64,000 bases of DNA from the NCBI RefSeq assembly GCF_050920415.1, contig NZ_CP169309.1. One strand, written 5' to 3'. The notes beneath the pieces are model-generated. The model was not told the origin of the DNA and made no database searches. It was given only the letters and a program-made list of their open reading frames with translations. The stretch's first letter is position 1, and each line of letters opens with the position of its first letter. The position numbers and the translations under genes are program-made. This stretch comes from Escherichia coli (GTDB lineage Bacteria > Pseudomonadota > Gammaproteobacteria > Enterobacterales > Enterobacteriaceae). Of this stretch, positions 12,341 through 45,901 are shown one piece after another.

Positions 12341-12347
12341 TCGAATA

Positions 12348-12397: not shown

Positions 12398-12982
12398 TTA
12401 TTGTTTGTTTTTTTCGTTCTGGTTGATGACAAATTCAATGTAACTTTCGATCTTTGCCTTCTCTGTTTCAGGTAACAATGCGTAGCGCGAGCGGTCATAG
12501 TTGATAGTTGCAGGGTCATGCGGATGAATCAGTAGTTCATATCCGTGACGCCCGAATGCAGATGCAACATTCTCCAGGGTGGAAATGGAAACGCTGACCT
12601 CATTGTTTAACAGGCGGCTGATTGTCACCTGGGCGACGCCGGATGCGCGGTGAAGTTTTCCCTGTGTTGAAAGGTCGCGGCTTTCGCTCATCCAGCGTTC
12701 CAGGTTGTGAGCCGCCAGCTGACCAATGTCGCTTGGGCCGACAGGCTGAAAACCTTCCTGAGAAAGCGAGCGATCGATATCAAGCCAGTTACGGGGTTTA
12801 TTGGCGGCAGCTTCAATTTTTCGCGCAACCTGGTCGCCGATAACCTTCTTGCCAAGAGCCCAGCGGTTTACCAGATTTGCCTGAGTTCCAAGTTTTTCTG
12901 CCATCCGCGTCTGAACACCATTGAATTCACGGTCGATCAAGTCGTTGAGATTTTGCCTGCGGACGTCCTGGATACTTTTCAT
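12398..12982 (-). CDS. phage repressor, tandem HTH_XRE domains (CI-like, no peptidase domain)
   Basis: 194 aa; HTH at GVQTRMAEKLGTQANLVNRW and at HRASGVAQVTISRLLNNEVSVSISTLENVA; divergent from Cro-like gene. Confidence 0.65.
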   Translation of the reverse strand: MKSIQDVRRQNLNDLIDREFNGVQTRMAEKLGTQANLVNRWALGKKVIGDQVARKIEAAANKPRNWLDIDRSLSQEGFQPVGPSDIGQLAAHNLERWMSESRDLSTQGKLHRASGVAQVTISRLLNNEVSVSISTLENVASAFGRHGYELLIHPHDPATINYDRSRYALLPETEKAKIESYIEFVINQNEKNKQ

Positions 12983-13037
12983 TTTCTGGAAAATCGCCTC
13001 ATATATGAATCAGTAGATGATTCAATTTAAAGCAATA

Positions 13038-13136: not shown

Positions 13137-13367
13137 ATGAGCGATAACGGACATTTCGATTTCAAAAAGCACTGGCTTGCACTTACTCCGGATGAGCGTG
13201 AAGCCTTCGCACAGGAAGCCGGAACGACGAGTCACTATATCCAGACTCACTTAACAGGTAAGCGAAAAATGCCAGGTAAAGTATTGATGAATGGGCTTTT
13301 TAAAGCCTGTAAAACAAGACAATGGCTGCGCTCAAAAGCAGAACTGGCATACTTCTTCTACTCATGA
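13137..13367 (+). CDS. Cro/YdaS-like HTH regulator
   Basis: 76 aa, divergent from repressor; ...TTSHYIQTHLTGKRKMP... HTH pattern. Confidence 0.6.
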   Translation: MSDNGHFDFKKHWLALTPDEREAFAQEAGTTSHYIQTHLTGKRKMPGKVLMNGLFKACKTRQWLRSKAELAYFFYS

Positions 13368-18020: not shown

Positions 18021-18368
18021 GTGCGATTCGTGGCTAAATCCCCCGCAGAACGCAAAGCCGCGCAGCGCGCTCGGCAGTCCGCCGCCGGTGAGCGCAAAAT
18101 TGAACTGGTGCTGGATAAGCAGGAGCAGGAAATGCTGGAGCGTAACTGTGCCGCCCGTCGCCCTGGTCGTGCGCCGTATGAAATGAGCGAATACATCGCG
18201 TTACTGATCCGCCAGGATGATGCACGCGTGCGCGGGCGTATAAAATCGATCAGCAGAAAACGTTGCGGTAAGTGCGGCGAGAGAGTTCCAGTTAATTCAT
18301 GCCCGTGTAATGGTGACTCGCAATGCTGGGTGACTAAAGGCTGGCATGAAACGAAATTAATAGTGTGA
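18021..18368 (+). CDS. hypothetical Cys-rich protein (start uncertain, GTG 18021 or 18030)
   Basis: ORF ending in palindrome; RKRCGKCGERVPVNSCPCNG cluster. Confidence 0.4.
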   Translation: MRFVAKSPAERKAAQRARQSAAGERKIELVLDKQEQEMLERNCAARRPGRAPYEMSEYIALLIRQDDARVRGRIKSISRKRCGKCGERVPVNSCPCNGDSQCWVTKGWHETKLIV

Positions 18369-18376
18369 CATGTCAC
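18364..18376. repeat. palindrome TGTGACATGTCAC, copy 1
   Basis: Perfect 13-bp palindrome; 42 bp before terminator hairpin. Confidence 0.6.
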
Positions 18377-18417
18377 GAGTAGATTATGCATGATGAATTT
18401 GATGGATTTTGAATACT

Positions 18418-20605: not shown

Positions 20606-20629
20606 AGCCAGCTCATCGGCTGGCTGTTT
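20606..20629 (+). terminator. terminator after terminase
   Basis: agccagc-tcatcg-gctggct hairpin, short T-run. Confidence 0.5.
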
Positions 20630-20641
20630 GTGACATGTCAC
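20629..20641. repeat. palindrome TGTGACATGTCAC, copy 2
   Basis: Perfect 13-bp palindrome abutting terminator. Confidence 0.6.
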
Positions 20642-20645
20642 GGTG

Positions 20646-21017
20646 TTATTGCTCGCTTAACTTCTGCTTCAGCAAGTAACCTTCAAGCATCCAGATTTTG
20701 TTTACAGCATTCTGCCGGGCAATCTTCCGACCAATTTCCGCATCAAAGTTTTCCGGGCTTGCACAGGCGCTCTCTCCGGTGACGGTGAAGCCATTGCGCA
20801 GCACCAGAACGCAGAACGTCAGCAGAGAAAGTGATTCGTGCGGCTGGTAGTTTACCTCTCCGCCAGTATGTTTCGCTTTTATGGCTACGCCAAAGATACC
20901 ATCTTCTGCTGTGAAATATGCCTCCTGAGCAATAATACTCTCGATATGGTCTGGCGTAACGCGCGGCGCGGCTAAACCTTTAGCCTGAATTTCAGATTCA
21001 ATGTCTTTGTCACTCAT
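20646..21017 (-). CDS. hypothetical protein (opposite-strand moron between terminase and tRNA)
   Basis: 123 aa MSDKDIESEIQAKGLAAPRVTPDHI...; family not recognised. Confidence 0.5.
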   Translation of the reverse strand: MSDKDIESEIQAKGLAAPRVTPDHIESIIAQEAYFTAEDGIFGVAIKAKHTGGEVNYQPHESLSLLTFCVLVLRNGFTVTGESACASPENFDAEIGRKIARQNAVNKIWMLEGYLLKQKLSEQ

Positions 21018-21060: not shown

Positions 21061-21220
21061 CTGGAAGCAATGAGTTATGCCTTCCGTGGCTGTACTGGTT
21101 TACAGCATGAAGCCATCGCAATGGCGTCCTGCTGTAAAAAGGGCGGTGATAGTCCTTCAAGGGAAACCATCACCGCCAAGCCCCTGGAACTTCTGGCATC
21201 ACGGTCCTTAGGCGTGATTC

Positions 21221-21297
21221 TGGCGTGGCATGCAGGATTCGAACCTGCGACCGACCGCTTAGAAGGCGGTTGCTCTGTCCAACTGAGCTAATGCCAC
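21221..21297 (-). tRNA. tRNA-Arg (anticodon UCU)
   Basis: Minus-strand cloverleaf: acceptor GTGGCAT/ATGCCAC, anticodon loop CUUCUAA, T-arm GGTTCGAATCC, 3' CCA. Confidence 0.85.
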
Positions 21298-23625: not shown

Positions 23626-23918
23626 CAGATTACGAAGACGATCAACTGAAAGAAGAAAACGCCCGTAAGCAACGTGACATGGCACAACGTGAAATTGATG
23701 ACATTCGCTTTGTCATGAGCAGTGAACAGGGGCGTCGCGTTGTCTGGTCTGTGCTGGAGAAAGGCCGGGTGTTTTCCGCTATCTCTCCGATGGATGCTAT
23801 GGCAATGGCATTTAATGAGGGGCAACGCAATCTGGCGCTGGAACTGTTTCAGCGCGTTATGGCGCATTGCCCTGAACAGTATTTGAAGATGGCCAAAGAG
23901 GCCAGTGAACAGGAGTGA
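23622..23918 (+). CDS. hypothetical protein
   Basis: 98 aa, overlaps portal stop by 4 bp. Confidence 0.45.
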   Translation: MTDYEDDQLKEENARKQRDMAQREIDDIRFVMSSEQGRRVVWSVLEKGRVFSAISPMDAMAMAFNEGQRNLALELFQRVMAHCPEQYLKMAKEASEQE

Positions 23919-30911: not shown

Positions 30912-33424
30912 TGCCAGTCGTACCAACAGTATCCGGACGTCAGGTTGAGAGCCGTGGAGTTCAGTCAGCAGGCTTGCAGACGTTTTCTCAGCCAGGTATT
31001 GGTGATGCTTTTGTTCGGGCAGGGGCAGAGACAATTGATGTTTTTGGTCAGGCAAAACAGCGTGCCAATATCGCTCTGGCTCAGGAGGCATCCCTTAAAC
31101 TCAGTCAGACAGGCAGCGATCTGCTGAATAACCCTGAAACAGGTTTGCTTAACCTGAAAGGGAAAAATGCTATTGGAAAAGGTCAGGAGTATACGCAGCA
31201 GTTTGATGCTCAGATCGAACAACTGGCTATGTCGCTGCCGGATGAACAGGCTCGTAATGCTTTCATGCAGCAGGCGCAGCAGCAGCGTATTCAGTTCACT
31301 ACGCAGGCCGGGCGGCACGAGATAGGGCAAATAAATGCCTACGAAGAAGGTCAGTTTCAGGCGACGCTGCTGAACAATGGTAAAAATGCCGCAGCATTGT
31401 ATGGCGACAATGCCGCATACGTATTGGCTAATAAGCAAACTTTCCAGCAAATTGAGGAGTACGGTGCTGCACATGGCTGGAGCGACGAGCAAATACAGGC
31501 CAAGAAAATCGAGTTTAAAGAGAAGGTTGCTGATGCAGCATTGTCCCAGTGGTCGGCAAACAATGCGATCTCATTTATCCAAAGTAATGGCGAGTTAAGC
31601 GATACTGCTGCTGGAGCTCGCCGTGCTGTAGCAGATAGTGACTCTTCCGAGCGTGCCCGTGGCATACGCAACAATAACCCAGGAAATCTCGAATACAGCA
31701 AAACTAATCCGTGGGTAGGCCAGACCGGTGATGATGGTCGATTTGCTAAATTCGAAACACCTGAACACGGGATTCGTGCATTAGGGCGGAACCTGATGTC
31801 GTATCAGAGGCAGGGTATTGATACCGTCAGCGAGATAATTAATCGCTGGGCACCGCCTACTGATAAAAATGACACTATGTCGTATATCAAAGCAGTGTGC
31901 GAACAACTTGGCGTTTCTGCTGATGAGCCTCTCGATGCATCTAATCCTGATACCCTGAAGGCGCTTTGTGCAGCCATTATCCATCATGAGAACGGTAGCC
32001 AGCCATACAGTGATCAGCAGTTAACTGCTGGTGTCAGTGCAGCACTTGGTTTATCAACAATTCCAACCAACACCAAACGCTATACCGGTAATGCAGCATT
32101 CGATGCGGCATCTCCTGAGGCGCAGGCAAGTTTTATGCGACAGGCGGATCAACTGCGTCGGCAGCAGCAGGCTGAATATAAAACGATGATTGACAGCCAG
32201 GTTCGCGATGCGACAGCTGCGTATATGCGTGGCGTTGAATTTCCTAACCCACCTGGTGAGGCTGATTTTATTGCAGCTTATGGAGTCAGAGAAGGAAAAC
32301 TGCGATATACCGAGTTCAGAAATACGCAAATCGCCGGACAGTATATAGGCTCTTTCCGCAACATGCCGACAAGCAGCATTACAGCATATGTTGAGCAATT
32401 ACGCCCGGATACTGGTGAGACAGGGGAGGGTTATGCGGCACGAGCCGCTCTTTATGACAACGTTGTGTCGGCTGCAAGTCAGGTGATAAAGCAGCGACAG
32501 GCTGATCCTGTACAGTTCTCTCTTGCCGCCGGACAGGCAAAGCCTATCGACATGAGCAATAAGGATAACTTTGGACAGAGCGTTGCCTTGCGTGCTGCTC
32601 AGGTCAGTGACCTTGCTAAGTCATATGGCACTCCACTGACGTTCTTTTCCAAAGACGAGGCCAATCAGATCGGTGTTTTCTTTCGTGATGCGCCCGTTTC
32701 CCAACAGGCAGCATATCTCGATACCATCAGGCAGAGCACTGGTGGTGGGCAGGTGTATATGTCAGCACTACAGCAGATCAGTGCCAACGCTCCATCTGCT
32801 GCCGTTGCCGGGATACTGATGGATAAGCCAGGTGGTATTTTGGCAGAAAAAAACTGGTTTAATCCGGATGTTTCCGTGTCTCCTGAAACCGCTGCGCAGA
32901 CAATTCTTGCTGGCGCGGCGGCTCGTAAAGGTACTGATGACGCGAAAGGTATTCCGATGCCTAAAGATGCTGATCTCCGCCTTGAGTTTTCTGACATGGT
33001 GAAGGATGCATTTGCTGGTGATGCTCAGGGGGCATCAATGGCATACGAGATCGCAAAGGACTATTACGCTGGTGTGATGGCGAAAAAAGGCGTGGTATCA
33101 GGCGAAATTGACAATGATATCTGGAAACAGGCTGTTAACGTAGCTACAGGTGGCGTGCATGACTATAACGGAATGGGGAATGTTCTTTTGCCGTGGGGAA
33201 TGTCTGCAGAGCAATTCGATAAGCAGGTTAATCAGGCTTGGAATGAACAAGTTGTTGGCACAGGGATAAAAACACCGCCTGGTCAGTATGGTTTGCAAAG
33301 TTACGGCGATAGTCAGTACCTGGTGAAACTTGGTACTGGTTATCTGCTAAAAGATGATGGTTCTCCCGTTGTTCTTGATCTGACACAGAAGCGTCAGAGA
33401 TTCTCCGGAGATATTCCGCAATGA
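30911..33424 (+). CDS. internal virion/ejection protein with candidate cell-wall hydrolase motif
   Basis: 837 aa; GIRNNNPGNLEY...GRFAKFETPEHGIRALGRNL segment. Confidence 0.55.
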   Translation: MPVVPTVSGRQVESRGVQSAGLQTFSQPGIGDAFVRAGAETIDVFGQAKQRANIALAQEASLKLSQTGSDLLNNPETGLLNLKGKNAIGKGQEYTQQFDAQIEQLAMSLPDEQARNAFMQQAQQQRIQFTTQAGRHEIGQINAYEEGQFQATLLNNGKNAAALYGDNAAYVLANKQTFQQIEEYGAAHGWSDEQIQAKKIEFKEKVADAALSQWSANNAISFIQSNGELSDTAAGARRAVADSDSSERARGIRNNNPGNLEYSKTNPWVGQTGDDGRFAKFETPEHGIRALGRNLMSYQRQGIDTVSEIINRWAPPTDKNDTMSYIKAVCEQLGVSADEPLDASNPDTLKALCAAIIHHENGSQPYSDQQLTAGVSAALGLSTIPTNTKRYTGNAAFDAASPEAQASFMRQADQLRRQQQAEYKTMIDSQVRDATAAYMRGVEFPNPPGEADFIAAYGVREGKLRYTEFRNTQIAGQYIGSFRNMPTSSITAYVEQLRPDTGETGEGYAARAALYDNVVSAASQVIKQRQADPVQFSLAAGQAKPIDMSNKDNFGQSVALRAAQVSDLAKSYGTPLTFFSKDEANQIGVFFRDAPVSQQAAYLDTIRQSTGGGQVYMSALQQISANAPSAAVAGILMDKPGGILAEKNWFNPDVSVSPETAAQTILAGAAARKGTDDAKGIPMPKDADLRLEFSDMVKDAFAGDAQGASMAYEIAKDYYAGVMAKKGVVSGEIDNDIWKQAVNVATGGVHDYNGMGNVLLPWGMSAEQFDKQVNQAWNEQVVGTGIKTPPGQYGLQSYGDSQYLVKLGTGYLLKDDGSPVVLDLTQKRQRFSGDIPQ

Positions 33425-35223
33425 GTTACTTTGGCCTTAATCCAGTAAACCAGAATCAGCAGCTTGACGAAGCAGCATCAAATCCAGCTGGCTTTAACAG
33501 CGATGTTGGTTTTTTCGACAATGCTGTAGGAGCGGCATTGTCTGGTTTGTACTCCGGGCTGGTGGCAAAGCCAGATCAGTTGCTCTGGGCAGGGATGGAT
33601 AAAATCGTATCCCCGATTGCTCAGTTTGTTAACGAAAACACCTCGCTCAATGACACTTCAGTTTCATACATTGCCGAGCAGAGAAAACTAGCAGAGCAGC
33701 AGGTTAAGCGGCTGACGCCTGATGCCGCGACAACCGGAACCGCCGGGCAGGTTCTTTATGGGTTGTTCGATATGGGCGGGCAGGCTGTTATCGGTACAAC
33801 GCTCGGTGGTCCGGCCGGAGGTGCTGCGGCGGTAACTTCGCTACAGGGTTTTTCTGAGTTTGAACGGCTGACAGCACAGGGTGTTGATTTCAGGACGGCG
33901 CAGGAAGCGGGATTAGTGCAGGGTATTACTGCTGGTGCCGGAACAATGATCCCTATGAGCCTCGGGTTACGTGCTGGTGGTGCGCTGGCGGAAGGTGTGG
34001 CGGCTCAGCTTGCGCGGACGGGTGAAAGTTCAGTGCGACGCGCCGCAGCAACAGCAGTAAGTGCAACGCCAGATATTGCCTATGCCGCAGGTACAAATAT
34101 TGCGTTCGGTATGGCACAGCGTGGGCTTACTGCAAAAACGCTTCGTGATGGTGGCTATAGCGAAATGGCTAACCAGTATGATGTGTTGGATCGACAGGCA
34201 ATTGCTATTGATGCTGTTCTTGGGGTGGCGTTTGGTGGTGTCGGCAGATTTATTAACTCTCGCGGCGAGTCTACAAGCGCACCAAATTTTTCACCAGTTG
34301 ATATTGATGCTGCACTGGCGGCGAATGCCGCTCATCATGCTGAAATTGATATTGCGCCCGGCGTGCCGATCAACGTGCTTTCGCGCAATTCTCACATTCA
34401 GGCTCTGCGAAAAGCTATGTCTGATGTTAGCCAGGGGAGACCTGTAGACGTTGCCAGCATTGTTGAGTCTGCATCTTTCAGTGAAATTCCTGGGCGCAAG
34501 AGTCTGCTGTCTCAGGCAGTTAATGAGGCTCTGTCATCTGTAGATGATGGAGTAACGGCGCGCGCTATAGAAAATCGGTTGCTTGAAGAACAGGCCGCGC
34601 AGCTTTTGCCGCGTGGAGATAGACAGGTTTACCAGTCTGAAATCGCTAATAGCCAACGAATTATTGAAAATCTCACTGAACAGCGTGCACAAATTCTTGC
34701 AGAAGAGCCAACCGGTAGCGGTAAAGCTTTGTCTCGTGCTCGATCAGATAAACAGGCCAGACTTCGTGATATTGATCAACGAATCCGGCAGGCACAAGAA
34801 CGCCTGGAATTTTCCCGTAACGCGTTGGCACCGCACGAGCCTGGAGGTCAGTTTTTTGAAGCTCGAGCAGAACTGGCACGGCGACAGCAGGCAGAAAGTG
34901 AACTTAATGCTCAGGCTGTTTCATTCTATAAAACAGCAGAGGTCAGGACGCCAGACGAAGTAGCTCCTTTTGAGCCCGGTAAGATATTGCAACAGACAGA
35001 ACAAAAAATGATGGCAGATCCGGCAGGAGATATTGATCTGCGTATAGCTGAAGACTCGCTGCTTGAATCACCTGACATGATAATCACCGTGCTGGATGAT
35101 GATGGTAATCCACAATCGCGCAGTGCGCGTGAAGTACTGGATGAAGCTAACAGGGAAAGTGAGCAGGCAATACAGGATTCCAGCCTGTTTGATGTTGCTG
35201 TGGCGTGTTTCTTGAGAGGTTAA
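33421..35223 (+). CDS. internal virion/ejection protein
   Basis: 600 aa, Ala/Gly-rich, overlaps flanking genes. Confidence 0.55.
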   Translation: MSYFGLNPVNQNQQLDEAASNPAGFNSDVGFFDNAVGAALSGLYSGLVAKPDQLLWAGMDKIVSPIAQFVNENTSLNDTSVSYIAEQRKLAEQQVKRLTPDAATTGTAGQVLYGLFDMGGQAVIGTTLGGPAGGAAAVTSLQGFSEFERLTAQGVDFRTAQEAGLVQGITAGAGTMIPMSLGLRAGGALAEGVAAQLARTGESSVRRAAATAVSATPDIAYAAGTNIAFGMAQRGLTAKTLRDGGYSEMANQYDVLDRQAIAIDAVLGVAFGGVGRFINSRGESTSAPNFSPVDIDAALAANAAHHAEIDIAPGVPINVLSRNSHIQALRKAMSDVSQGRPVDVASIVESASFSEIPGRKSLLSQAVNEALSSVDDGVTARAIENRLLEEQAAQLLPRGDRQVYQSEIANSQRIIENLTEQRAQILAEEPTGSGKALSRARSDKQARLRDIDQRIRQAQERLEFSRNALAPHEPGGQFFEARAELARRQQAESELNAQAVSFYKTAEVRTPDEVAPFEPGKILQQTEQKMMADPAGDIDLRIAEDSLLESPDMIITVLDDDGNPQSRSAREVLDEANRESEQAIQDSSLFDVAVACFLRG

Positions 35224-35786
35224 ATTAAATGAGACAGGAATGTATACAAGCGGTCCAGCAGGCGGCGCAGCGCACGTTAACGGCGCGAGAAATACAGAAC
35301 ATTGAAGACCGCATTTATCGCAATATGCGCTCCATTGCTCGTGATGACCCTATGTCGTGGCGACAACTTTCCGAGTCAGAGCGGCTGTATCGTGCAGCAC
35401 AATTGGCATCTGAAGAATTACAGCGAGAAGCGGCATTAAAGAAACGTCGTGTGGCTCTCACTATAGCTGCACGTCAGAGATTGGATAAATTTATCAATAG
35501 CTATCAAGGGGCTGATGGGAAACTTGGCGCTCTTAACCGTACTATAGCTTTTAATGCAGACGGTAAATCTAATTTCCTCTCTGTTGAATCCAGAACAAAA
35601 GCCACCCGTGATTATGCATTGAGTCAATTGCAGGAGGCATTCGAAGCAGTTGATCCTCGCTTTTTTGGTCTGTTTGAAGATGAAGCGGGCGTACGTAGAC
35701 TGGCCCCCTGAATCTCCAGACAACCAGTATCACTTAAATAAGTGATAGTCTTAATACTAGTTTTTAGACTAGTCATTGGAGAACAG

Positions 35787-36152
35787 ATGATTGATGTCTT
35801 AGGGCCGGAGAAACGCAGACGGCGTACCACACAGGAAAAGATCGCAATTGTTCAGCAGAGCTTTGAACCGGGGATGACGGTCTCCCTCGTTGCCCGGCAA
35901 CATGGTGTAGCAGCCAGCCAGTTATTTCTCTGGCGTAAGCAATACCAGGAAGGAAGTCTTACTGCTGTCGCCGCCGGAGAACAGGTTGTTCCTGCCTCTG
36001 AACTTGCTGCCGCCATGAAGCAGATTAAAGAACTCCAGCGCCTGCTCGGCAAGAAAACGATGGAAAATGAACTCCTCAAAGAAGCCGTTGAATATGGACG
36101 GGCAAAAAAGTGGATAGCGCACGCGCCCTTATTGCCCGGGGATGGGGAGTAA
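35787..36152 (+). CDS. insC: IS2 transposase OrfA
   Basis: [26 protein letters not shown]... matches recalled InsC. Confidence 0.9.
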
Positions 36153-37015
36153 GCTTAGTCAGCCGTTGTCTCCGGGTGTCGCGTGCGCAGTTGCACGTCA
36201 TTCTCAGACGAACCGATGACTGGATGGATGGCCGCCGCAGTCGTCACACTGATGATACGGATGTGCTTCTCCGTATACACCATGTTATCGGAGAGCTGCC
36301 CACGTATGGTTATCGTCGGGTATGGGCGCTGCTTCGCAGACAGGCAGAACTTGATGGTATGCCTGCGATCAATGCCAAACGTGTTTACCGGATCATGCGC
36401 CAGAATGCGCTGTTGCTTGAGCGAAAACCTGCTGTACCGCCATCGAAACGGGCACATACAGGCAGAGTGGCCGTGAAAGAAAGCAATCAGCGATGGTGCT
36501 CTGACGGGTTCGAGTTCTGCTGTGATAACGGAGAGAGACTGCGTGTCACGTTCGCGCTGGACTGCTGTGATCGTGAGGCACTGCACTGGGCGGTGACTAC
36601 TGGCGGCTTCAACAGTGAAACAGTACAGGACGTCATGCTGGGAGCGGTGGAACGCCGCTTCGGCAACGATCTTCCGTCGTCTCCAGTGGAGTGGCTGACG
36701 GATAATGGTTCATGCTACCGGGCTAATGAAACACGCCAGTTCGCCCGGATGTTGGGACTTGAACCGAAGAACACGGCGGTGCGGAGTCCGGAGAGTAACG
36801 GAATAGCAGAGAGCTTCGTGAAAACGATAAAGCGTGACTACATCAGTATCATGCCCAAACCAGACGGGTTAACGGCAGCAAAGAACCTTGCAGAGGCGTT
36901 CGAGCATTATAACGAATGGCATCCGCATAGTGCGCTGGGTTATCGCTCGCCACGGGAATATCTGCGGCAGCGGGCTTGTAATGGGTTAAGTGATAACAGA
37001 TGTCTGGAAATATAG
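36110..37015 (+). CDS. insD: IS2 transposase OrfB
   Basis: 301-aa ORF, DDE catalytic domain; matches recalled InsD. Confidence 0.9.
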
Positions 37016-39048
37016 GGGCAAATCCAGTACGTGACCTGGTATATGAAATGCGGGGGCAAAATACTGGCAATGCTAAAGCAAGAAAAGGTGCTAAGGCGTG
37101 GAGAGAAGTTACAGAGCTGCTGCGCCGCCGGTTTAATGATGCTGGTGGGGACATTGGCTATCTCGAAAACTGGGGGATCCCTCAACATCATTCTATGGAA
37201 AAGGTTGGGGCGGTATCAAAGGATAAGTGGGTTAGCGATGTTATAGGTAAGCTGGATCGCAAATATTATATCCGAGCCGATGGACAACTGATGAACGATG
37301 CCGAGTTGTCTGCATTTCTTGGAGAGGCTTATAACACGATCGCTACTGGTGGGCTGAATAAGCTTACTGATACCGGAATGCGAATTTCCGGCGCACGTGC
37401 TAACCGTGGTAATGCATCACGACAGATACATTTCAAAGATGCAGATTCCTATCTGCAATATCAGCAACTTTATGGCGATCGCTCTCTATGGGAAATCATG
37501 GTCGGTCACCTGGAAGGTATCAGTAAAGATATTGCACTGGTGGAAACATATGGCCCAAACCCCGATCATGTTTTCCGCTCTCTTCTTGATCAGGTGAAGG
37601 CAGAAACGGCAACAGCTAACCCGAGTAAAACCGGTAAAGTCGAGCGGCTGGCGAACAACACAGAGAATCTGTACAACTTTATTTCCGGAAAGACACAGCC
37701 TGTAGCAAATCCGCACATCGCGCGATGGTCTGACAATATCCGCAACTGGCTGGTTGCCAGCAGACTCGGATCCGCGTTGCTGTCATCGTTCTCTGATCTT
37801 GGAACCATGTATCTGTCTGCGAAGGTGACCAACCTTCCAATGAACCAGTTATTCCGCAACCAGCTTGAAGCTATGGACCCAACGAACCGTACTGAGCTTG
37901 CGCGGGCGCGCCGCGCTGGTCTGGCGATGGAATCTCTACTTGGCAGCGTTAACCGCTGGGCGATGGATAATATGGGGCCGTCAGTGTCTCGTTGGGCTGC
38001 AACGGCGGTAATGCGTGCCAGTGGGCTTACAGCATGGTCAGATGCGCACAAGCGCGCCTATGGCGTAACCATGATGGGAAGCCTGGGAGAAGTAGTGTCA
38101 CGGACACCAGACCTTCGTAGCCTCGATGACTCTGATTTTCGTATCCTGAAAAGCAAAGGGATTACTGACACAGACTGGAGCGTATGGAAGCTGGCGCAAC
38201 AGGAGGACTGGGGGAACGGTAATAATACGATGCTGACACCGGAAAGCATTATGCGTATCCCTGATTCAGCAGTTAAACATCTTGGTGAGCCTGAACGCGT
38301 GAAATTTGAGGCAATGCGTAAACTGCTCGGTGCCGTAACTGAAGAAGTTGATATGGCTGTTATTACACCGGGAGCACGTGAGCAACTGATAACCGGTTCT
38401 GGTATTCAGCGTGGAACATGGAAAGGTGAATTAACGAGAAGTGTTTTCCTGTTTAAATCGTTCCCTATCTCGGTGGTTATGCGTCACTGGTCACGCGCTA
38501 TGGGTATGCCGTCTGCTGGTGGGCGTGCGGCATATATTGCGACGTTTATTGCCAGCACGACCATTCTTGGCGCTTTGTCTCAGCAACTTAACGACCTTGC
38601 GTCTGGTCGTAATCATCGCGAGATGACAGGAGAAGATGCTGCTAAATTTTGGCTTGGTGCTCTACTGAAAGGTGGTGGTCTTGGCCTTTACGGTGACTTT
38701 TTATTGTCAGATCACACTAGGTACGGAAGCGGCGCGCTGGCGTCGATGCTTGGCCCGGTAGCTGGTCTGGTTGATGACGTAGTGAAGATTGCTCAGGGCA
38801 TACCGTTAAATGCTGTGGAAGGGAAGAATGAGCAGACTGGTGGTGATCTGGTTAAGCTGGGGAAGGGGCTGATGCCAGGTGCGAATCTCTGGTACTTGAA
38901 GGCGGCTCTCGATCACATGATCTTTAACCAGATGCAGGAGTATTTTTCACCAGGCTATTTGCGTAAAATGGAGCAACGTTCGAAGAAAGAGTTTAACCAG
39001 ACATACTGGTGGCGACCACAGGATGTCACTCCGCAATAAGGATGAGAA

Positions 39049-39189
39049 ATGATTGCTTTTATTCTTGTTGTGTTTGCGCTTGTTGCACTTGGCGTTATGA
39101 ACCGTAAATGTATCATTGACGATGGCGAATTTGCTGTTGCAGTTATTTTGATATTATCTGGTGTAGCAGGATACATAGGCTTGTCATAA
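39049..39189 (+). CDS. small hydrophobic membrane protein (46 aa)
   Basis: MIAFILVVFALVALGV...; AAGGATGAG RBS; not in ORF track. Confidence 0.3.
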   Translation: MIAFILVVFALVALGVMNRKCIIDDGEFAVAVILILSGVAGYIGLS

Positions 39190-39195
39190 CGTGAG

Positions 39196-39209
39196 TGTGA
39201 CATGTCACA
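39196..39209. repeat. palindrome TGTGACATGTCACA, copy 3
   Basis: Perfect 14-bp palindrome immediately before terminator. Confidence 0.6.
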
Positions 39210-39233
39210 GGCCGCTTTCGCGGCCTTTTCTTT
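39210..39233 (+). terminator. rho-independent terminator after virion-protein operon
   Basis: ggccgc-tttc-gcggcc then TTTTCTTT. Confidence 0.7.
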
Positions 39234-39507
39234 ATGTGGTTTGTTTTCGTAGTTGTTCGGCACAATAGTCGAGATGTGTTTGCAGATCCTGCATAGACAT
39301 CTGTGAGCTGGTGACGTAGTTAATCAGTGCAGTCAGTTCGGCAAGTGGGCCATCGACATTAAATCCATCCTTATCGAGATCCCGGAGTAATTTCATCAAG
39401 TGCGATCCTTCCACCAGTGACCTGACGCCTCCCGGCGTGTGAATCCTTTCGGTAAATCCCTCTTCCAGTGGATAGTGATACTGCTGCATCTTATCTTCTC
39501 CATGCAA
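39232..39507 (-). CDS. hypothetical protein (opposite-strand moron before tail fibre)
   Basis: 91 aa (or 85 from second ATG); family not recognised. Confidence 0.4.
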   Translation of the reverse strand: MHGEDKMQQYHYPLEEGFTERIHTPGGVRSLVEGSHLMKLLRDLDKDGFNVDGPLAELTALINYVTSSQMSMQDLQTHLDYCAEQLRKQTT

Positions 39508-39565
39508 TAACTGTATGTTTATACAGTATCAAATAATTTGTTTGCTATCCAGCACGTTTTGCGAA

Positions 39566-39580
39566 TCACCTGAAAGGTAA
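39566..39580. promoter_or_regulatory. operator-like palindrome TCACC TGAAA GGTAA
   Basis: Divergent region between moron and tail fibre; extra half-site near 39623. Confidence 0.5.
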
Positions 39581-39684
39581 TATCTGCTCACATTAACACT
39601 CTTTCCATCCATATATGGTTTTTCAGGTAATAGAATAACCAGATATGCGGCGCAACGGGTGCTGCGACTATCTGGAGATTTAAC

Positions 39685-41940
39685 ATGACGGTCTCAACCG
39701 AAGTTGACCACAACGAATACACAGGCAATGGCGTTACGACTTCATTCCCTTATACCTTTAGGGTTTTCAAGGAATCTGATCTGGTAGTGCAGGTGGTTGA
39801 CCTTGACGAAAATATCGCTGTGCTGGCTCTGGATACTGATTACACTGTCACTGGGGCTGGTGGATATAACGGCGGTAATGTAATTCTGTCGAAGGCGTTA
39901 GCTAACGGTTACCAGATTTCTATATCACGAGAGCTCCCGGTTACGCAGGAAACTGATTTGCGTAATCAGGGGAAGTTCTTTGCAGAAGTGCATGAGGATG
40001 CTTTTGATAAGCTAACGATGCTGATCCAGCAGGTTCGAAGTTGGTTTAGCTTGGCGCTGCGCAAGCCGTCATTCGTGGCAAATTATTATAACGCGCTGAA
40101 CAACTATATTCGAAACCTGAAAGACCCGGTAAACCCGCAGGATGCATCCACAAAGAATTATGTGGACAGTACGGTTTTATCGAATATCGACCATACAATC
40201 CGTGTTCCTGATTCTTATATCGATCCGCTGCCACCTCTCGCTCAACTTGAAGGAAGCATAATCGGCATCGCCAACGGTAAGCCCGTTCCGTTCCCTGTGC
40301 CTTCAGGAACGGCGGCTGACGTATTCAACCAGTTGGCCAGCAGCGCTGACGGGAAAGGTGATGCGCTGATAACAGTGAAGCAGCCTTACCAGGGGGCAAT
40401 TTCTCTTTCGCAGCATATAAAAAATGCACAAGCCATTAGTGTTGTTGATTTTGGAGCGACAATTGATGGAACGCTTCACCCTTTAAGCGAGATATTTTCA
40501 ACACTATCAGCTGCTCAGATGGTATATCCATTTGTTTCATCTCTATCTCAATCTGTTGATTATGCTGCGCTTCAGTCCGCATGTAACACGGGAAAAACAG
40601 TGCTTATTCCAAAGGGAACTGGTTACTATAATTCAACTATTTTTCTGAAAAACTCCGTTAGGATTGTTGGAGAGGGAACTGATACAATAAATAGAGCGCA
40701 ATCATTTATGTCTATTGTTGGTAATATTTCAGCCTTTGCTTTAGATCAAGGTGATTCCCTATCGACAAAAATGATTCAGATTTTTATTGATGGTCTTTAT
40801 ATTTTCTATGATCCAGGAACCACACCAACGAATCCTGAAAATGATGGTGGGAAAATTGCATTTAATTTCTACTCGACAATTCCAAATTCAACAAGCTTGG
40901 AAATGTCTGAAATTAAAAACTGTACAGTTCATGGTGCATGGTCATGCTTTAATGATCAGACTGGCACATACTTGACAAAACTTACGAATGTGTGGGCCAG
41001 AAACTGCCATAATGGTTTTACAAAAGGAACTGGCACTACCATTCTGATGGAAAGATGTTATACATCTGGATGTATATCACCATATCAGTTTGGTTCTGTC
41101 TTTGCAGCTACAATGATTAACTGTGCCATGGATGGATCAAATATTTCGTTAAACGCAGGTTCGCTTGGTGGGGCTGGCGTTCATGTTCTTAACACACATA
41201 GTTTTAACATTATTGGTTTTGATGCGGAGGGTAACACCATCTCTACAGATGGTTATGGAGAGGCAGCACTATTCCATTTCGAAAATAGTAGTGGTGGCAT
41301 TTCTGGCCTGACTGCACATCAGAACAGCATGCGAAGTGTTGCGCCAAGTGATGCTGGTGTAGTTTCCTACATCAGGGCGTCAGGTAGCAGCGATGTTAAA
41401 ATTGAGTCATCAGAAGATGATTTATCTGACACCAACACAGTTGCATATACTGGGTCTGGGTATCCCATCATGCTACATGCAACTGACACAGCTAAAATAA
41501 GCGTCTTTAATAGCAGATTCAGGGCGACTACCACTGGTACCCCTGTCTTAAGTACGCTAAGTACTGGTGATGTATCATGGTATGACTGCCCTAAAAAAAC
41601 AGGACTTATCGTAGATGGTTATTCACAAATAACATCTAAGGAAGGATTGCAAACATCATGCTTCTATACCAGTAAAGGCTCTACTGCTGTTGCTGAAAAT
41701 ACTCCGACAACACTTTTCTCTCTACCAGATTCGCAAGGTACTTACATTATTAGCGTATGGGTGGCTGGAAGCGGAGAAAATTACGCATCTACACAACTGG
41801 CAATGTATGATGGAGATAAGCTAATTCTTGTTGCGTTAAAAATAGCAGCATTTCTTAGTTTTTCAGCAACAGGGAGAATTGTAACCATTACAAGCCAGGT
41901 GGCAGGCACTTTAAACTGGACTTACACTAAAATAGGTTGA
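39685..41940 (+). CDS. tail fibre/tailspike with T7 gp17-like N-terminal adaptor domain
   Basis: 751 aa; N-terminal ...YTGNGVTTSFPYTFRVFKESDLVV...DTDYTV pattern; Gly/Ser/Thr-rich C-terminal region. Confidence 0.7.
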   Translation: MTVSTEVDHNEYTGNGVTTSFPYTFRVFKESDLVVQVVDLDENIAVLALDTDYTVTGAGGYNGGNVILSKALANGYQISISRELPVTQETDLRNQGKFFAEVHEDAFDKLTMLIQQVRSWFSLALRKPSFVANYYNALNNYIRNLKDPVNPQDASTKNYVDSTVLSNIDHTIRVPDSYIDPLPPLAQLEGSIIGIANGKPVPFPVPSGTAADVFNQLASSADGKGDALITVKQPYQGAISLSQHIKNAQAISVVDFGATIDGTLHPLSEIFSTLSAAQMVYPFVSSLSQSVDYAALQSACNTGKTVLIPKGTGYYNSTIFLKNSVRIVGEGTDTINRAQSFMSIVGNISAFALDQGDSLSTKMIQIFIDGLYIFYDPGTTPTNPENDGGKIAFNFYSTIPNSTSLEMSEIKNCTVHGAWSCFNDQTGTYLTKLTNVWARNCHNGFTKGTGTTILMERCYTSGCISPYQFGSVFAATMINCAMDGSNISLNAGSLGGAGVHVLNTHSFNIIGFDAEGNTISTDGYGEAALFHFENSSGGISGLTAHQNSMRSVAPSDAGVVSYIRASGSSDVKIESSEDDLSDTNTVAYTGSGYPIMLHATDTAKISVFNSRFRATTTGTPVLSTLSTGDVSWYDCPKKTGLIVDGYSQITSKEGLQTSCFYTSKGSTAVAENTPTTLFSLPDSQGTYIISVWVAGSGENYASTQLAMYDGDKLILVALKIAAFLSFSATGRIVTITSQVAGTLNWTYTKIG

Positions 41941-41975: not shown

Positions 41976-43835
41976 TTAAAAAATAAATGGCTTGTCATTT
42001 TTTAATTTTTTCCCAAACTCCCTTGAGCCTTCTAGAGTGAAATGACTATTATCAAAGTAAAGATAATCACCTTTAGTAGAAAGGATGTCACAATTCATTG
42101 ACTTTCCGCACTGCTCGGCAAGCGTATCTATGTATTTATACGAATGCTGGTTGCTACCAAGATAGCCTTTTATCGTATTGTTAATTTCAACTCTACTATT
42201 GTCATAATACTTTTTAGAGTATTTATTTATCCCATCAACTGTGTTTACGCCAGATTTAAAAGCAGACTTAATTATTTCCATTGGCTGTGCCGTAAACTTC
42301 ATCTTAGGCCCAAATACAATAACTTCTCCTTTAGTCCTCTCCTGTATTTTGCCTATAGAGTAAAGCATCCCGAACAGATCGCCAACGCCATAATCATCAT
42401 GAAGGATTATAATGTTAGCTTCAGCTATGGCTGGAGATGAGATTACGTCATTGAATATTTTTTTGCACTTTTCTACATAGGGCATGTCGTTTGGTGTATA
42501 ACCAAAGTTTGAACATAAGTTTGTAGTTCTTATATAAGTTATATCACCCTTCATCCCATTTTCAGTAAGTGCATAAGTCAGATCTATGCCATGAGAATTA
42601 CCGATTATTACTATTTTTTTGTCACCTGTCTTCGGTACAGGGTGAGGCTTGTCTCCATCAACCCAATACCTGTTCATTTGTTCTTTTAGCTGTTCGGACG
42701 TCATTGTGGCAAACGAAAACCTTGATGGAATTCCAGATAGCAATAGTACAGCGAAGCACAAACCAACTACACCACCTACAGGTAGCACGATTGAAGTTAA
42801 TTCATTCAAGGACCTGCCGTTTTTAAATTTTGAAAGTGCCTTTCTTGAAGGGTTTTCAATTAAATAAAATGATGCGGCACCAATAAGAATTGATAAGGCA
42901 ACACCTGATACTGTATAAACCATATCATCCATCTTATTCATTGACATATATACAACTATGGGCCAGTGAACCAGATATACCGAGTATGAAATTTTCCCAA
43001 CCCATTGAGATAATGCATTATCAAGTAATAGGTTATCTTTACATCCAAGATAAATGACAAAGAAAGTAGAAACGACTGGTATTAAGGCAAGATACCCAGG
43101 CCACTTCATTAAGCTGTTAAGCAAGACTATCCCCGATACTGCAAAGGCTATGGCAATCCATCTAAATACAGCAGTGCGTTTTGAATTTTGTATAGTAGGA
43201 AGAAGGTAGGCAAGGCCGCCAGCCAGCATCTCCCAAGCTCTGCTTGACAGAAGATAAAATGCAGCGCCCTGATTATTATAAGAAAGATACACTGAGGCAG
43301 TAAATGATATAATTGCAAGGATGGCAACAACATACCTTATATGCTTAGCGCCCAATAGCTTTGCAATCACCATCATTATGATTGGATATACCATGTAAAA
43401 CTGCCACTCTACAGAAAGCGACCATGTATGAAGAAGCCATTTCTGCTTTGATGCAGTATCAAAATAATCAATGCTATGGTAATACTCAACGTTTGAGAAA
43501 AATAAAAGGCTACTTCTTACGTGTTGAGCCAGGTATTCATATTCAGAAGGTAAAAGAATGAAGTAACCAACTATCAGAACAGCAACTGAAACTACAGTTA
43601 AAGCAGGTATAATTCTTCTTGCCCTATCAAGATAAAATCCTAACAGTGAAAAGTTTCCATTAGATATCTTTGTGTAAATTATTCCAGTCATCAGATACCC
43701 TGATATAACAAAGAATATATCTACGCCTGAAAATCCACCAGAGAACCCTTTGACTCCGAAGTGATAAAGGACAACTGCCATAACAGCAATAGCCCTAAGC
43801 CCGCCTATATCTGTTCTGTATTTTAAAGAAGACAT
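41976..43835 (-). CDS. O-antigen acyltransferase (acyltransferase-3 membrane domain + C-terminal SGNH-like domain, OafA-like)
   Basis: 619 aa; N-terminal multi-TM with ...AVVLYHF...DIFFVISGYL...; lysogenic-conversion candidate. Confidence 0.75.
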   Translation of the reverse strand: MSSLKYRTDIGGLRAIAVMAVVLYHFGVKGFSGGFSGVDIFFVISGYLMTGIIYTKISNGNFSLLGFYLDRARRIIPALTVVSVAVLIVGYFILLPSEYEYLAQHVRSSLLFFSNVEYYHSIDYFDTASKQKWLLHTWSLSVEWQFYMVYPIIMMVIAKLLGAKHIRYVVAILAIISFTASVYLSYNNQGAAFYLLSSRAWEMLAGGLAYLLPTIQNSKRTAVFRWIAIAFAVSGIVLLNSLMKWPGYLALIPVVSTFFVIYLGCKDNLLLDNALSQWVGKISYSVYLVHWPIVVYMSMNKMDDMVYTVSGVALSILIGAASFYLIENPSRKALSKFKNGRSLNELTSIVLPVGGVVGLCFAVLLLSGIPSRFSFATMTSEQLKEQMNRYWVDGDKPHPVPKTGDKKIVIIGNSHGIDLTYALTENGMKGDITYIRTTNLCSNFGYTPNDMPYVEKCKKIFNDVISSPAIAEANIIILHDDYGVGDLFGMLYSIGKIQERTKGEVIVFGPKMKFTAQPMEIIKSAFKSGVNTVDGINKYSKKYYDNSRVEINNTIKGYLGSNQHSYKYIDTLAEQCGKSMNCDILSTKGDYLYFDNSHFTLEGSREFGKKLKNDKPFIF

Positions 43836-45884: not shown

Positions 45885-45901
45885 ATTGAGTGGGAATGAT
45901 T
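45885..45901. repeat. attR core (ATTGAGTGGGAATGATT)
   Basis: Exact copy of 6047-6063. Confidence 0.65.

Follow-up and report, generated by a model that had tools for sequence, protein, structure and literature searches.

The closest described relative of the gene considered here is ant of the Salmonella phage SPC32H. Its primary accounts are Kim and Ryu 2013 (J Virol 87:11775) and Kim et al. 2016 (PNAS 113:E2480), and its structure is given by chains E-H of PDB 5D50. The mechanistic details given below rest on secondary citations of this work. According to PMC7380047 (citing Kim and Ryu 2013), self-cleavage of LexA leads to the synthesis of Ant, which inhibits the phage repressor by protein-protein interaction. 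In PMC9638917 and PMC7380047, binding of Ant to Rep with release of the operator, and SOS-dependent expression of Ant, are known for SPC32H only.

A small minus-strand ORF lies between the virion-protein operon and the tailspike gene of a prophage in the 64-kb window, i.e. the whole stretch of E. coli DNA that was analysed. It is very probable, at about 0.9, that this ORF is ant, an orthologue of SPC32H Ant and the SOS-sensing part of the lysis-lysogeny switch of the prophage, as judged from sequence comparison. The four features that define an SPC32H-type Ant are found together here: homology, a LexA box at the promoter, a Rep partner and the genomic position. Thus the gene is of a known type, with no new biology beyond the SPC32H paradigm, and it is a core regulatory gene rather than accessory cargo.

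The ant gene and its product

The ORF list of the window gives a minus-strand ORF at 39232..39507 with a TTG start and a product of 91 aa. An in-frame ATG at 39489 reduces the coding sequence to 39232..39489 (85 aa plus stop), and the same start is found in all homologues compared. A Shine-Dalgarno GGAG, read from the sequence at 39498..39501 (minus strand), lies 8 nt upstream of this ATG and is invariant across nine aligned relatives. Because the ATG is preceded by GGAG and coincides with the starts of the homologues, the real product of ant is, on this sequence context, the 85-aa protein. The 91-aa TTG start was rejected, since no homologue keeps it and its extra codons would cover the ribosome site and abut the LexA box directly. 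Database versions of Ant with 126-127 aa (PAS61, at 32710-33090 of its record, and protein clusters P0005, P0015 and P0024-P0029) were set aside as start miscalls that extend upstream through the LexA box and the promoter.

The original prediction had described an acidic minus-strand ORF of 85-91 aa with a sequence that was not recognisable. The ORF is present with both starts, and its product is mildly acidic (pI 5.1; 12 D+E against 7 K+R). Its sequence, however, is readily placed by database comparison: 75 of 84 residues (89%) are identical to SPC32H Ant (SPC32H_020) over the full length (pairwise E=3e-58), and the product matches PDB 5D50 chain E, 'Anti-repressor protein', at E=5e-48 and phrog_450 at E=1.6e-47 over residues 2-84. 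The GenBank records of the Salmonella phages SPC32H and SPC32N label the orthologue 'ant: anti-repressor protein'. The products of phiV10 (p24, 96% identical) and epsilon15 (gp19, 86% identical) come from the same locus and are both annotated as hypothetical; the record of phage ZX5 likewise gives its small ant gene as a 'hypothetical protein'.

Comparison of ant with its orthologues in Salmonella and Enterobacter phages gave dN/dS values of 0.05-0.08, with dN of about 0.1 and dS of 1.5-2.1, the latter near saturation. By this measure ant is a real coding gene under strong purifying selection. Neither Pfam nor NCBIfam contributed a meaningful family for Ant; what came up, DUF724 (E=0.0038) and UpsF (13 bits, cutoff 400), respectively, was rejected as noise. 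A scan of 38900-39800 against Rfam produced only a sub-threshold snoRNA match, which was also rejected.

Control region and 3' end of ant

The ant gene and the 751-aa tailspike gene (39685..41940) diverge from a common region of 195 bp (39490-39684). A predicted LexA (SOS) box, AACTGTATGTTTATACAGTA, is located at 39509..39528, 20-39 nt upstream of the ant ATG and between the predicted -35 and the ribosome site. The box contains the CTGT-N8-ACAG pattern, agrees with the E. coli LexA consensus TACTGTATATATATACAGTA at 17/20 positions and is the only site with three or fewer mismatches in 64 kb, where 0.00 were expected. The CTGT-N8-ACAG patterns at 21090 and 25632 were rejected as LexA boxes, with more than three mismatches to the 20-mer and GC-rich spacers.

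The upstream region was aligned in nine phages of Escherichia, Salmonella, Enterobacter and Klebsiella, namely the window, phiV10, SPC32H, SPC32N, epsilon15, Tyrion, BUCT554, BUCT711 and Kp4865-1. The arms of the LexA box, TACTGT and ACAGT, are kept in this alignment while the flanks diverge. In SPC32N the ACAG arm of the box carries a C-to-A change relative to SPC32H; this is reportedly the mutation by which SPC32N, in the 2013 work of Kim and Ryu, expresses Ant constitutively.

A consensus scan for sigma-70 promoters called no ant promoter on the minus strand, and the promoter may therefore be weak or non-canonical. From hexamers conserved in the alignment we infer an ant promoter at 39523..39551 (minus strand), with TGGATA as the -35 (39546-39551), a 17-nt spacer and TACTGT as the -10 (39523-39528). 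The putative -10 sits within the LexA box.

Further from the gene is an operator-type palindrome of the ATTACC-N5-GGTAAT family, ATCACCTGAAAGGTAAT, at 39565..39581. The divergent region would thus hold two operators, one for the host protein LexA and one of a type annotated as a phage-repressor site. An operator-bearing divergent region shared with the tail-fibre (tailspike) gene had been anticipated from the sequence, and both the LexA box and ATCACCTGAAAGGTAAT do lie within 39490-39684. The palindrome is centred about 57 bp upstream of the putative ant transcription start. Towards the tailspike gene, a conserved TAGAAT follows the palindrome after about 50 bp and overlaps an operator half-site that faces this gene. 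A conserved GGTAATAGAAT is seen in the ant-tailspike region at 39627-39637.

The 3' side of ant agrees with the original prediction, which had placed a palindrome and a terminator beside the ORF. An exact TGTGACATGTCACA at 39196-39209 lies just past the 3' end of the gene, and a terminator-like hairpin on the plus strand, AGGCCGC-TTTC-GCGGCCT followed by TTTCTTT, occupies 39209-39226. RNA of the minus strand at this site is predicted to fold more stably than shuffled controls (z = -3.2). The whole unit of palindrome, GC hairpin and T-run (39196..39226) is predicted to act as the plus-strand terminator of the virion operon and as the 3' hairpin of ant. The hairpin stem and the palindrome are kept in PAS61, SPC32H, epsilon15 and BUCT554, and the loop varies.

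Other copies of TGTGACATGTCACA are present in the window with one mismatch at 18364 and 20629 and with two mismatches at 23673. The four matches compare with 0.27 expected, and none of 100 shuffles reached four. A palindrome TGTGACATGTCAC(A/G) occupies the same three positions in three phages: immediately before terS, immediately after terL beside an antisense gene, and in the gap that separates ant from the last virion gene. These sites are at 18364-18377, 20629-20642 and 39196-39209 in the window, at 38628, 2144 and 19633 in SPC32H, and at 12342, 14607 and 32674 in PAS61. At two of its three positions TGTGACATGTCAC abuts a GC hairpin. It was rejected as a CRP site, the spacing being 4 rather than 6. 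The antisense gene after terL, the second such gene in the prophage, is at 20646-21017 (minus strand) and encodes 123 aa matching phrog_322; a tRNA-Arg(TCT) gene lies upstream of it on the same strand (21221-21297, minus), as in SPC32H.

The LexA box, together with the acidity of the product and its size of 85 aa, also recalls the dinI genes, which are carried by many enterobacterial prophages. A protein of this sort would be a DinI-like or other SOS modulator, acting on RecA or the SOS response and not on the phage repressor. The Pfam scan, however, gave no DinI (PF06183) match for Ant. In addition, the only named family relative of Ant is an antirepressor PHROG, and its PDB match is the Ant chain of a Rep-Ant complex. 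A DinI-like function is thus extremely improbable, and the evidence favors an antirepressor.

The prophage and its repressor

The ant gene is carried by a podovirus prophage of the genus Uetakevirus that resembles phiV10 and epsilon15. Over most of its length this prophage shares about 98% identity with the E. coli O157 typing phages 9 and 10, phiv142-3, PAS61 and phiV10. Two 17-bp att cores, ATTGAGTGGGAATGATT at 6047-6063 and 45885-45901, bound a prophage of about 39.9 kb, including an IS2 element. A 525-aa ORF (4484..6061), taken to be guaA, overlaps the left core with its 3' end. This agrees with guaA as the published attachment site of phiV10, epsilon15 and ZX5 (PMC9782041).

The genes around ant follow the order of SPC32H: a 46-aa membrane protein, ant, tailspike and O-acetyltransferase, corresponding to SPC32H_019-ant-tsp-oac. 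The first of these is a hydrophobic ORF at 39049-39189 (plus strand), a member of phrog_7892 and homologue of the SPC32H_019 'putative integral membrane protein'; it closes the virion operon, ahead of the terminator. The last is a 619-aa ORF at 41976-43835 (minus strand), downstream of the tailspike gene and at the position of the SPC32H O-antigen acetylase gene (oac); it is likely to be the serotype-converting cargo of the prophage. 65FD, PAS61, epsilon15 and BUCT554 also have an antisense ant at this position, with the last gene of the virion operon on one side and the tailspike gene on the other.

The original prediction had called the gene an antisense moron, which would make it a horizontally inserted piece of accessory cargo of unknown function, for lysogenic conversion or defence, expressed from the prophage and unrelated to the phage life cycle. 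Parts of that description hold: ant is small, acidic and antisense to the late genes, with a regulated promoter region of its own and a 3' hairpin. An own promoter and terminator are expected of a moron, but are insufficient alone to make a gene one. The label itself does not hold. A moron would be variably present, but ant is at the same position in 35 of 35 matching phage records (>80% coverage, four host genera). Its GC content of 0.48 is not foreign compared with 0.43-0.52 in the flanks, and it has no PADLOC match, hence no support for a defence role. The 89% identity to an antirepressor with a solved Rep complex (PDB 5D50) also speaks against cargo, and such an origin is very improbable.

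The prophage has been interrupted by an IS2-type element of 1331 bp (35696-37026; ORFs 35742..36152 and 36110..37015), flanked by a 5-bp GTACG target duplication at 35691-35695 and 37027-37031. The insertion splits a gene-18-like virion gene into 35229..35711 and 37000..39039, and the prophage is therefore probably defective for particle formation. The Ant orthologue in such a prophage might be a relic that is inconsequential, or might act in trans on co-resident Uetakevirus-type prophages with a compatible Rep. Crosstalk by trans-acting antirepressors is documented for the Gifsy and Fels prophages in PMC3121763 and PMC7380047. On the other hand, ant retains an intact ORF, ribosome site and LexA box, and rep, the operators and the att sites are likewise intact. 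The IS insertion is probably recent, and the switch itself is not abolished by it. A tblastn search of the 64-kb window found neither a second copy of Ant nor a second Uetakevirus. A relic is therefore improbable, though less so than cargo, and ant is better read as part of an intact switch.

The presumed target of Ant is encoded by rep, the prophage repressor gene, at 12398..12982 (minus strand). The assignment of its 194-aa product is by homology to SPC32H Rep, to which it is 42% identical over the full length (N-terminal domain 52%, C-terminal domain 38%). Rep has two HTH-like regions and matches PDB 5D50_A, 'Repressor', at E=4e-42, so that both partners of the solved Rep-Ant complex have a counterpart in this prophage. 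A Peptidase_S24 domain was looked for in Rep and none was found. Rep would therefore not undergo RecA-responsive self-cleavage, and SOS induction is expected to go through an antirepressor.

The ATTACC-N5-GGTAAT family has 47 sites with two or fewer mismatches in the window, against 6.9 expected. Ten 17-bp operator-like sites have one mismatch or none, and every one of them is inside the prophage (12263, 12325, 13037, 15368, 15430, 18454, 18472, 21619, 39565 and 43871). Two operator-like palindromes, at 13037 and 13085, separate rep from a divergent cro-like gene (13137..13367). The sites are found on both sides of rep and ahead of the replication genes, terS, the portal operon, the tailspike gene and the lysis cassette. 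Since by position they precede most transcription units, the pattern suggests that Rep directly represses many dispersed promoters. In SPC32H the same palindrome is found at syntenic positions, though the two repressors have diverged, and the GenBank record of epsilon15 annotates the homologous palindrome as a protein_bind site, 'repressor, lysogeny'.

These elements can be assembled into a switch. In the lysogen, host LexA bound to the SOS box overlapping the ant promoter would keep ant silent. Upon DNA damage, RecA-stimulated self-cleavage of LexA would free the promoter and Ant would be made. Ant would then bind Rep, a repressor unable to cleave itself, and break up the DNA-binding Rep tetramer. 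As Rep leaves its ATTACC-N5-GGTAAT operators, the lytic transcription units would be derepressed. The steps of LexA control, Ant-Rep binding and tetramer disassembly are carried over to this prophage by homology with SPC32H. Binding of Ant to this particular Rep is an extrapolation because of the low identity of the two repressors, most of all in the C-terminal domain.

Distribution and comparison with known antirepressors

The gene is widespread. It is present in every Uetakevirus examined, i.e. in the same 35 phage records, and conservation in related prophages, on which the original prediction had made the gene depend, is thus observed. The Ant proteins form 134 clusters from Escherichia, Salmonella, Citrobacter, Klebsiella, Enterobacter, Yersinia, Cedecea and others. 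Many prophages of Salmonella, Citrobacter, Klebsiella and Enterobacter have the locus too. Of 5426 complete E. coli genomes, 532 (about 10%) carry it, and 'hypothetical protein' is the label of the features at the 12 E. coli genome matches that were listed. The practical value of the assignment lies in annotation. A LexA-controlled Ant would explain how phiV10-like prophages, which include O-antigen-modifying phages of E. coli O157:H7, sense DNA damage with a repressor that has no self-cleavage domain.

Ant is also related to larger antirepressors of sister phages. Residues 2-79 of Ant are homologous to the C-terminal ~75 residues of these proteins, with 40-44% identity and pairwise E values of 1e-13 to 2e-16, and Ant matches phrog_1760, a family of Bro-N / P22-Ant-type antirepressors, at E=5e-7. 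Three examples are ORF4 of vB_EcoP_ZX5, a Bro-N protein at 1078-1773 of its record (42% identity); gp42 of TL-2011b, a P22-Ant-like protein whose gene adjoins an Arc-like repressor gene (44%); and gp46 of TL-2011b, a Bro-N protein (40%). The two TL-2011b proteins are encoded at 31300-32244 and 33420-34115 of that record, and TL-2011b has three Ant-domain proteins in all, in different gene contexts. Unlike the small Ant, the Bro-N / P22-Ant-type proteins are 231-314 aa long and have an additional N-terminal Bro-N or Ant domain.

The homology of Ant to the C-termini of larger antirepressors suggests that the Ant fold of about 75 residues may be a portable Rep-binding module. Uetakevirus-type phages would then have placed this one module under different inputs: alone in a LexA-controlled gene, or at the C-terminal end of a P22-Ant-like or a Bro-N protein. 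A further proposal adds to this module the operator upstream of ant, through which ant and the tailspike promoter could both be coupled to Rep; this combined proposal is tentative, and we think it more doubtful than otherwise. If true, the coupling of ant to Rep would create positive feedback once Ant starts inactivating Rep. To our knowledge neither a portable module nor coupling to Rep has been described for E. coli phiV10-like prophages.

In the study of the 98.8%-identical phage vB_EcoP_ZX5, it was the Bro-N protein that was tested as "the" anti-repressor, and overexpression of ORF4 lowered the prophage (lysogen) titre (PMC9782041). phiV10 has a Bro-N 'anti-immunity' gene after ant on the same strand. 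The arrangement in the window is instead like that of SPC32H.

Small antirepressors under LexA control are known from other phages as well, namely Tum of coliphage 186 and the Gifsy/Fels-2 antirepressors (Shearwin et al. 1998; Lemire et al. 2011, PMC3121763). The 2013 abstract of Kim and Ryu is said to describe SPC32H Ant as structurally distinct from these proteins. In PMC7380047, Tum and the Gifsy/Fels-2 antirepressors are, as Ant is, small, LexA-controlled and able to inactivate a non-cleavable repressor by binding it. They belong to other phage lineages and their link to Ant is one of functional analogy only; no family of the Tum or Gifsy type is among the Pfam, PHROG and NCBIfam matches of Ant.

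The comparison with SPC32H is much closer. The host is E. coli here and Salmonella for SPC32H, and the product has 85 aa instead of 86, with one codon missing after the start. The partner repressors are only 42% identical, and the IS2 insertion in the surrounding prophage is a further difference. The SPC32H gene carries its antirepressor name, whereas most of the listed E. coli genomes and E. coli phage records call the locus a 'hypothetical protein'. Here and in SPC32H, nevertheless, ant lies in the same orientation, flanked by the tailspike gene and the gene of the 46-aa membrane protein. The type of Rep, the operator palindrome family and a LexA box that covers the ant promoter are shared as well.
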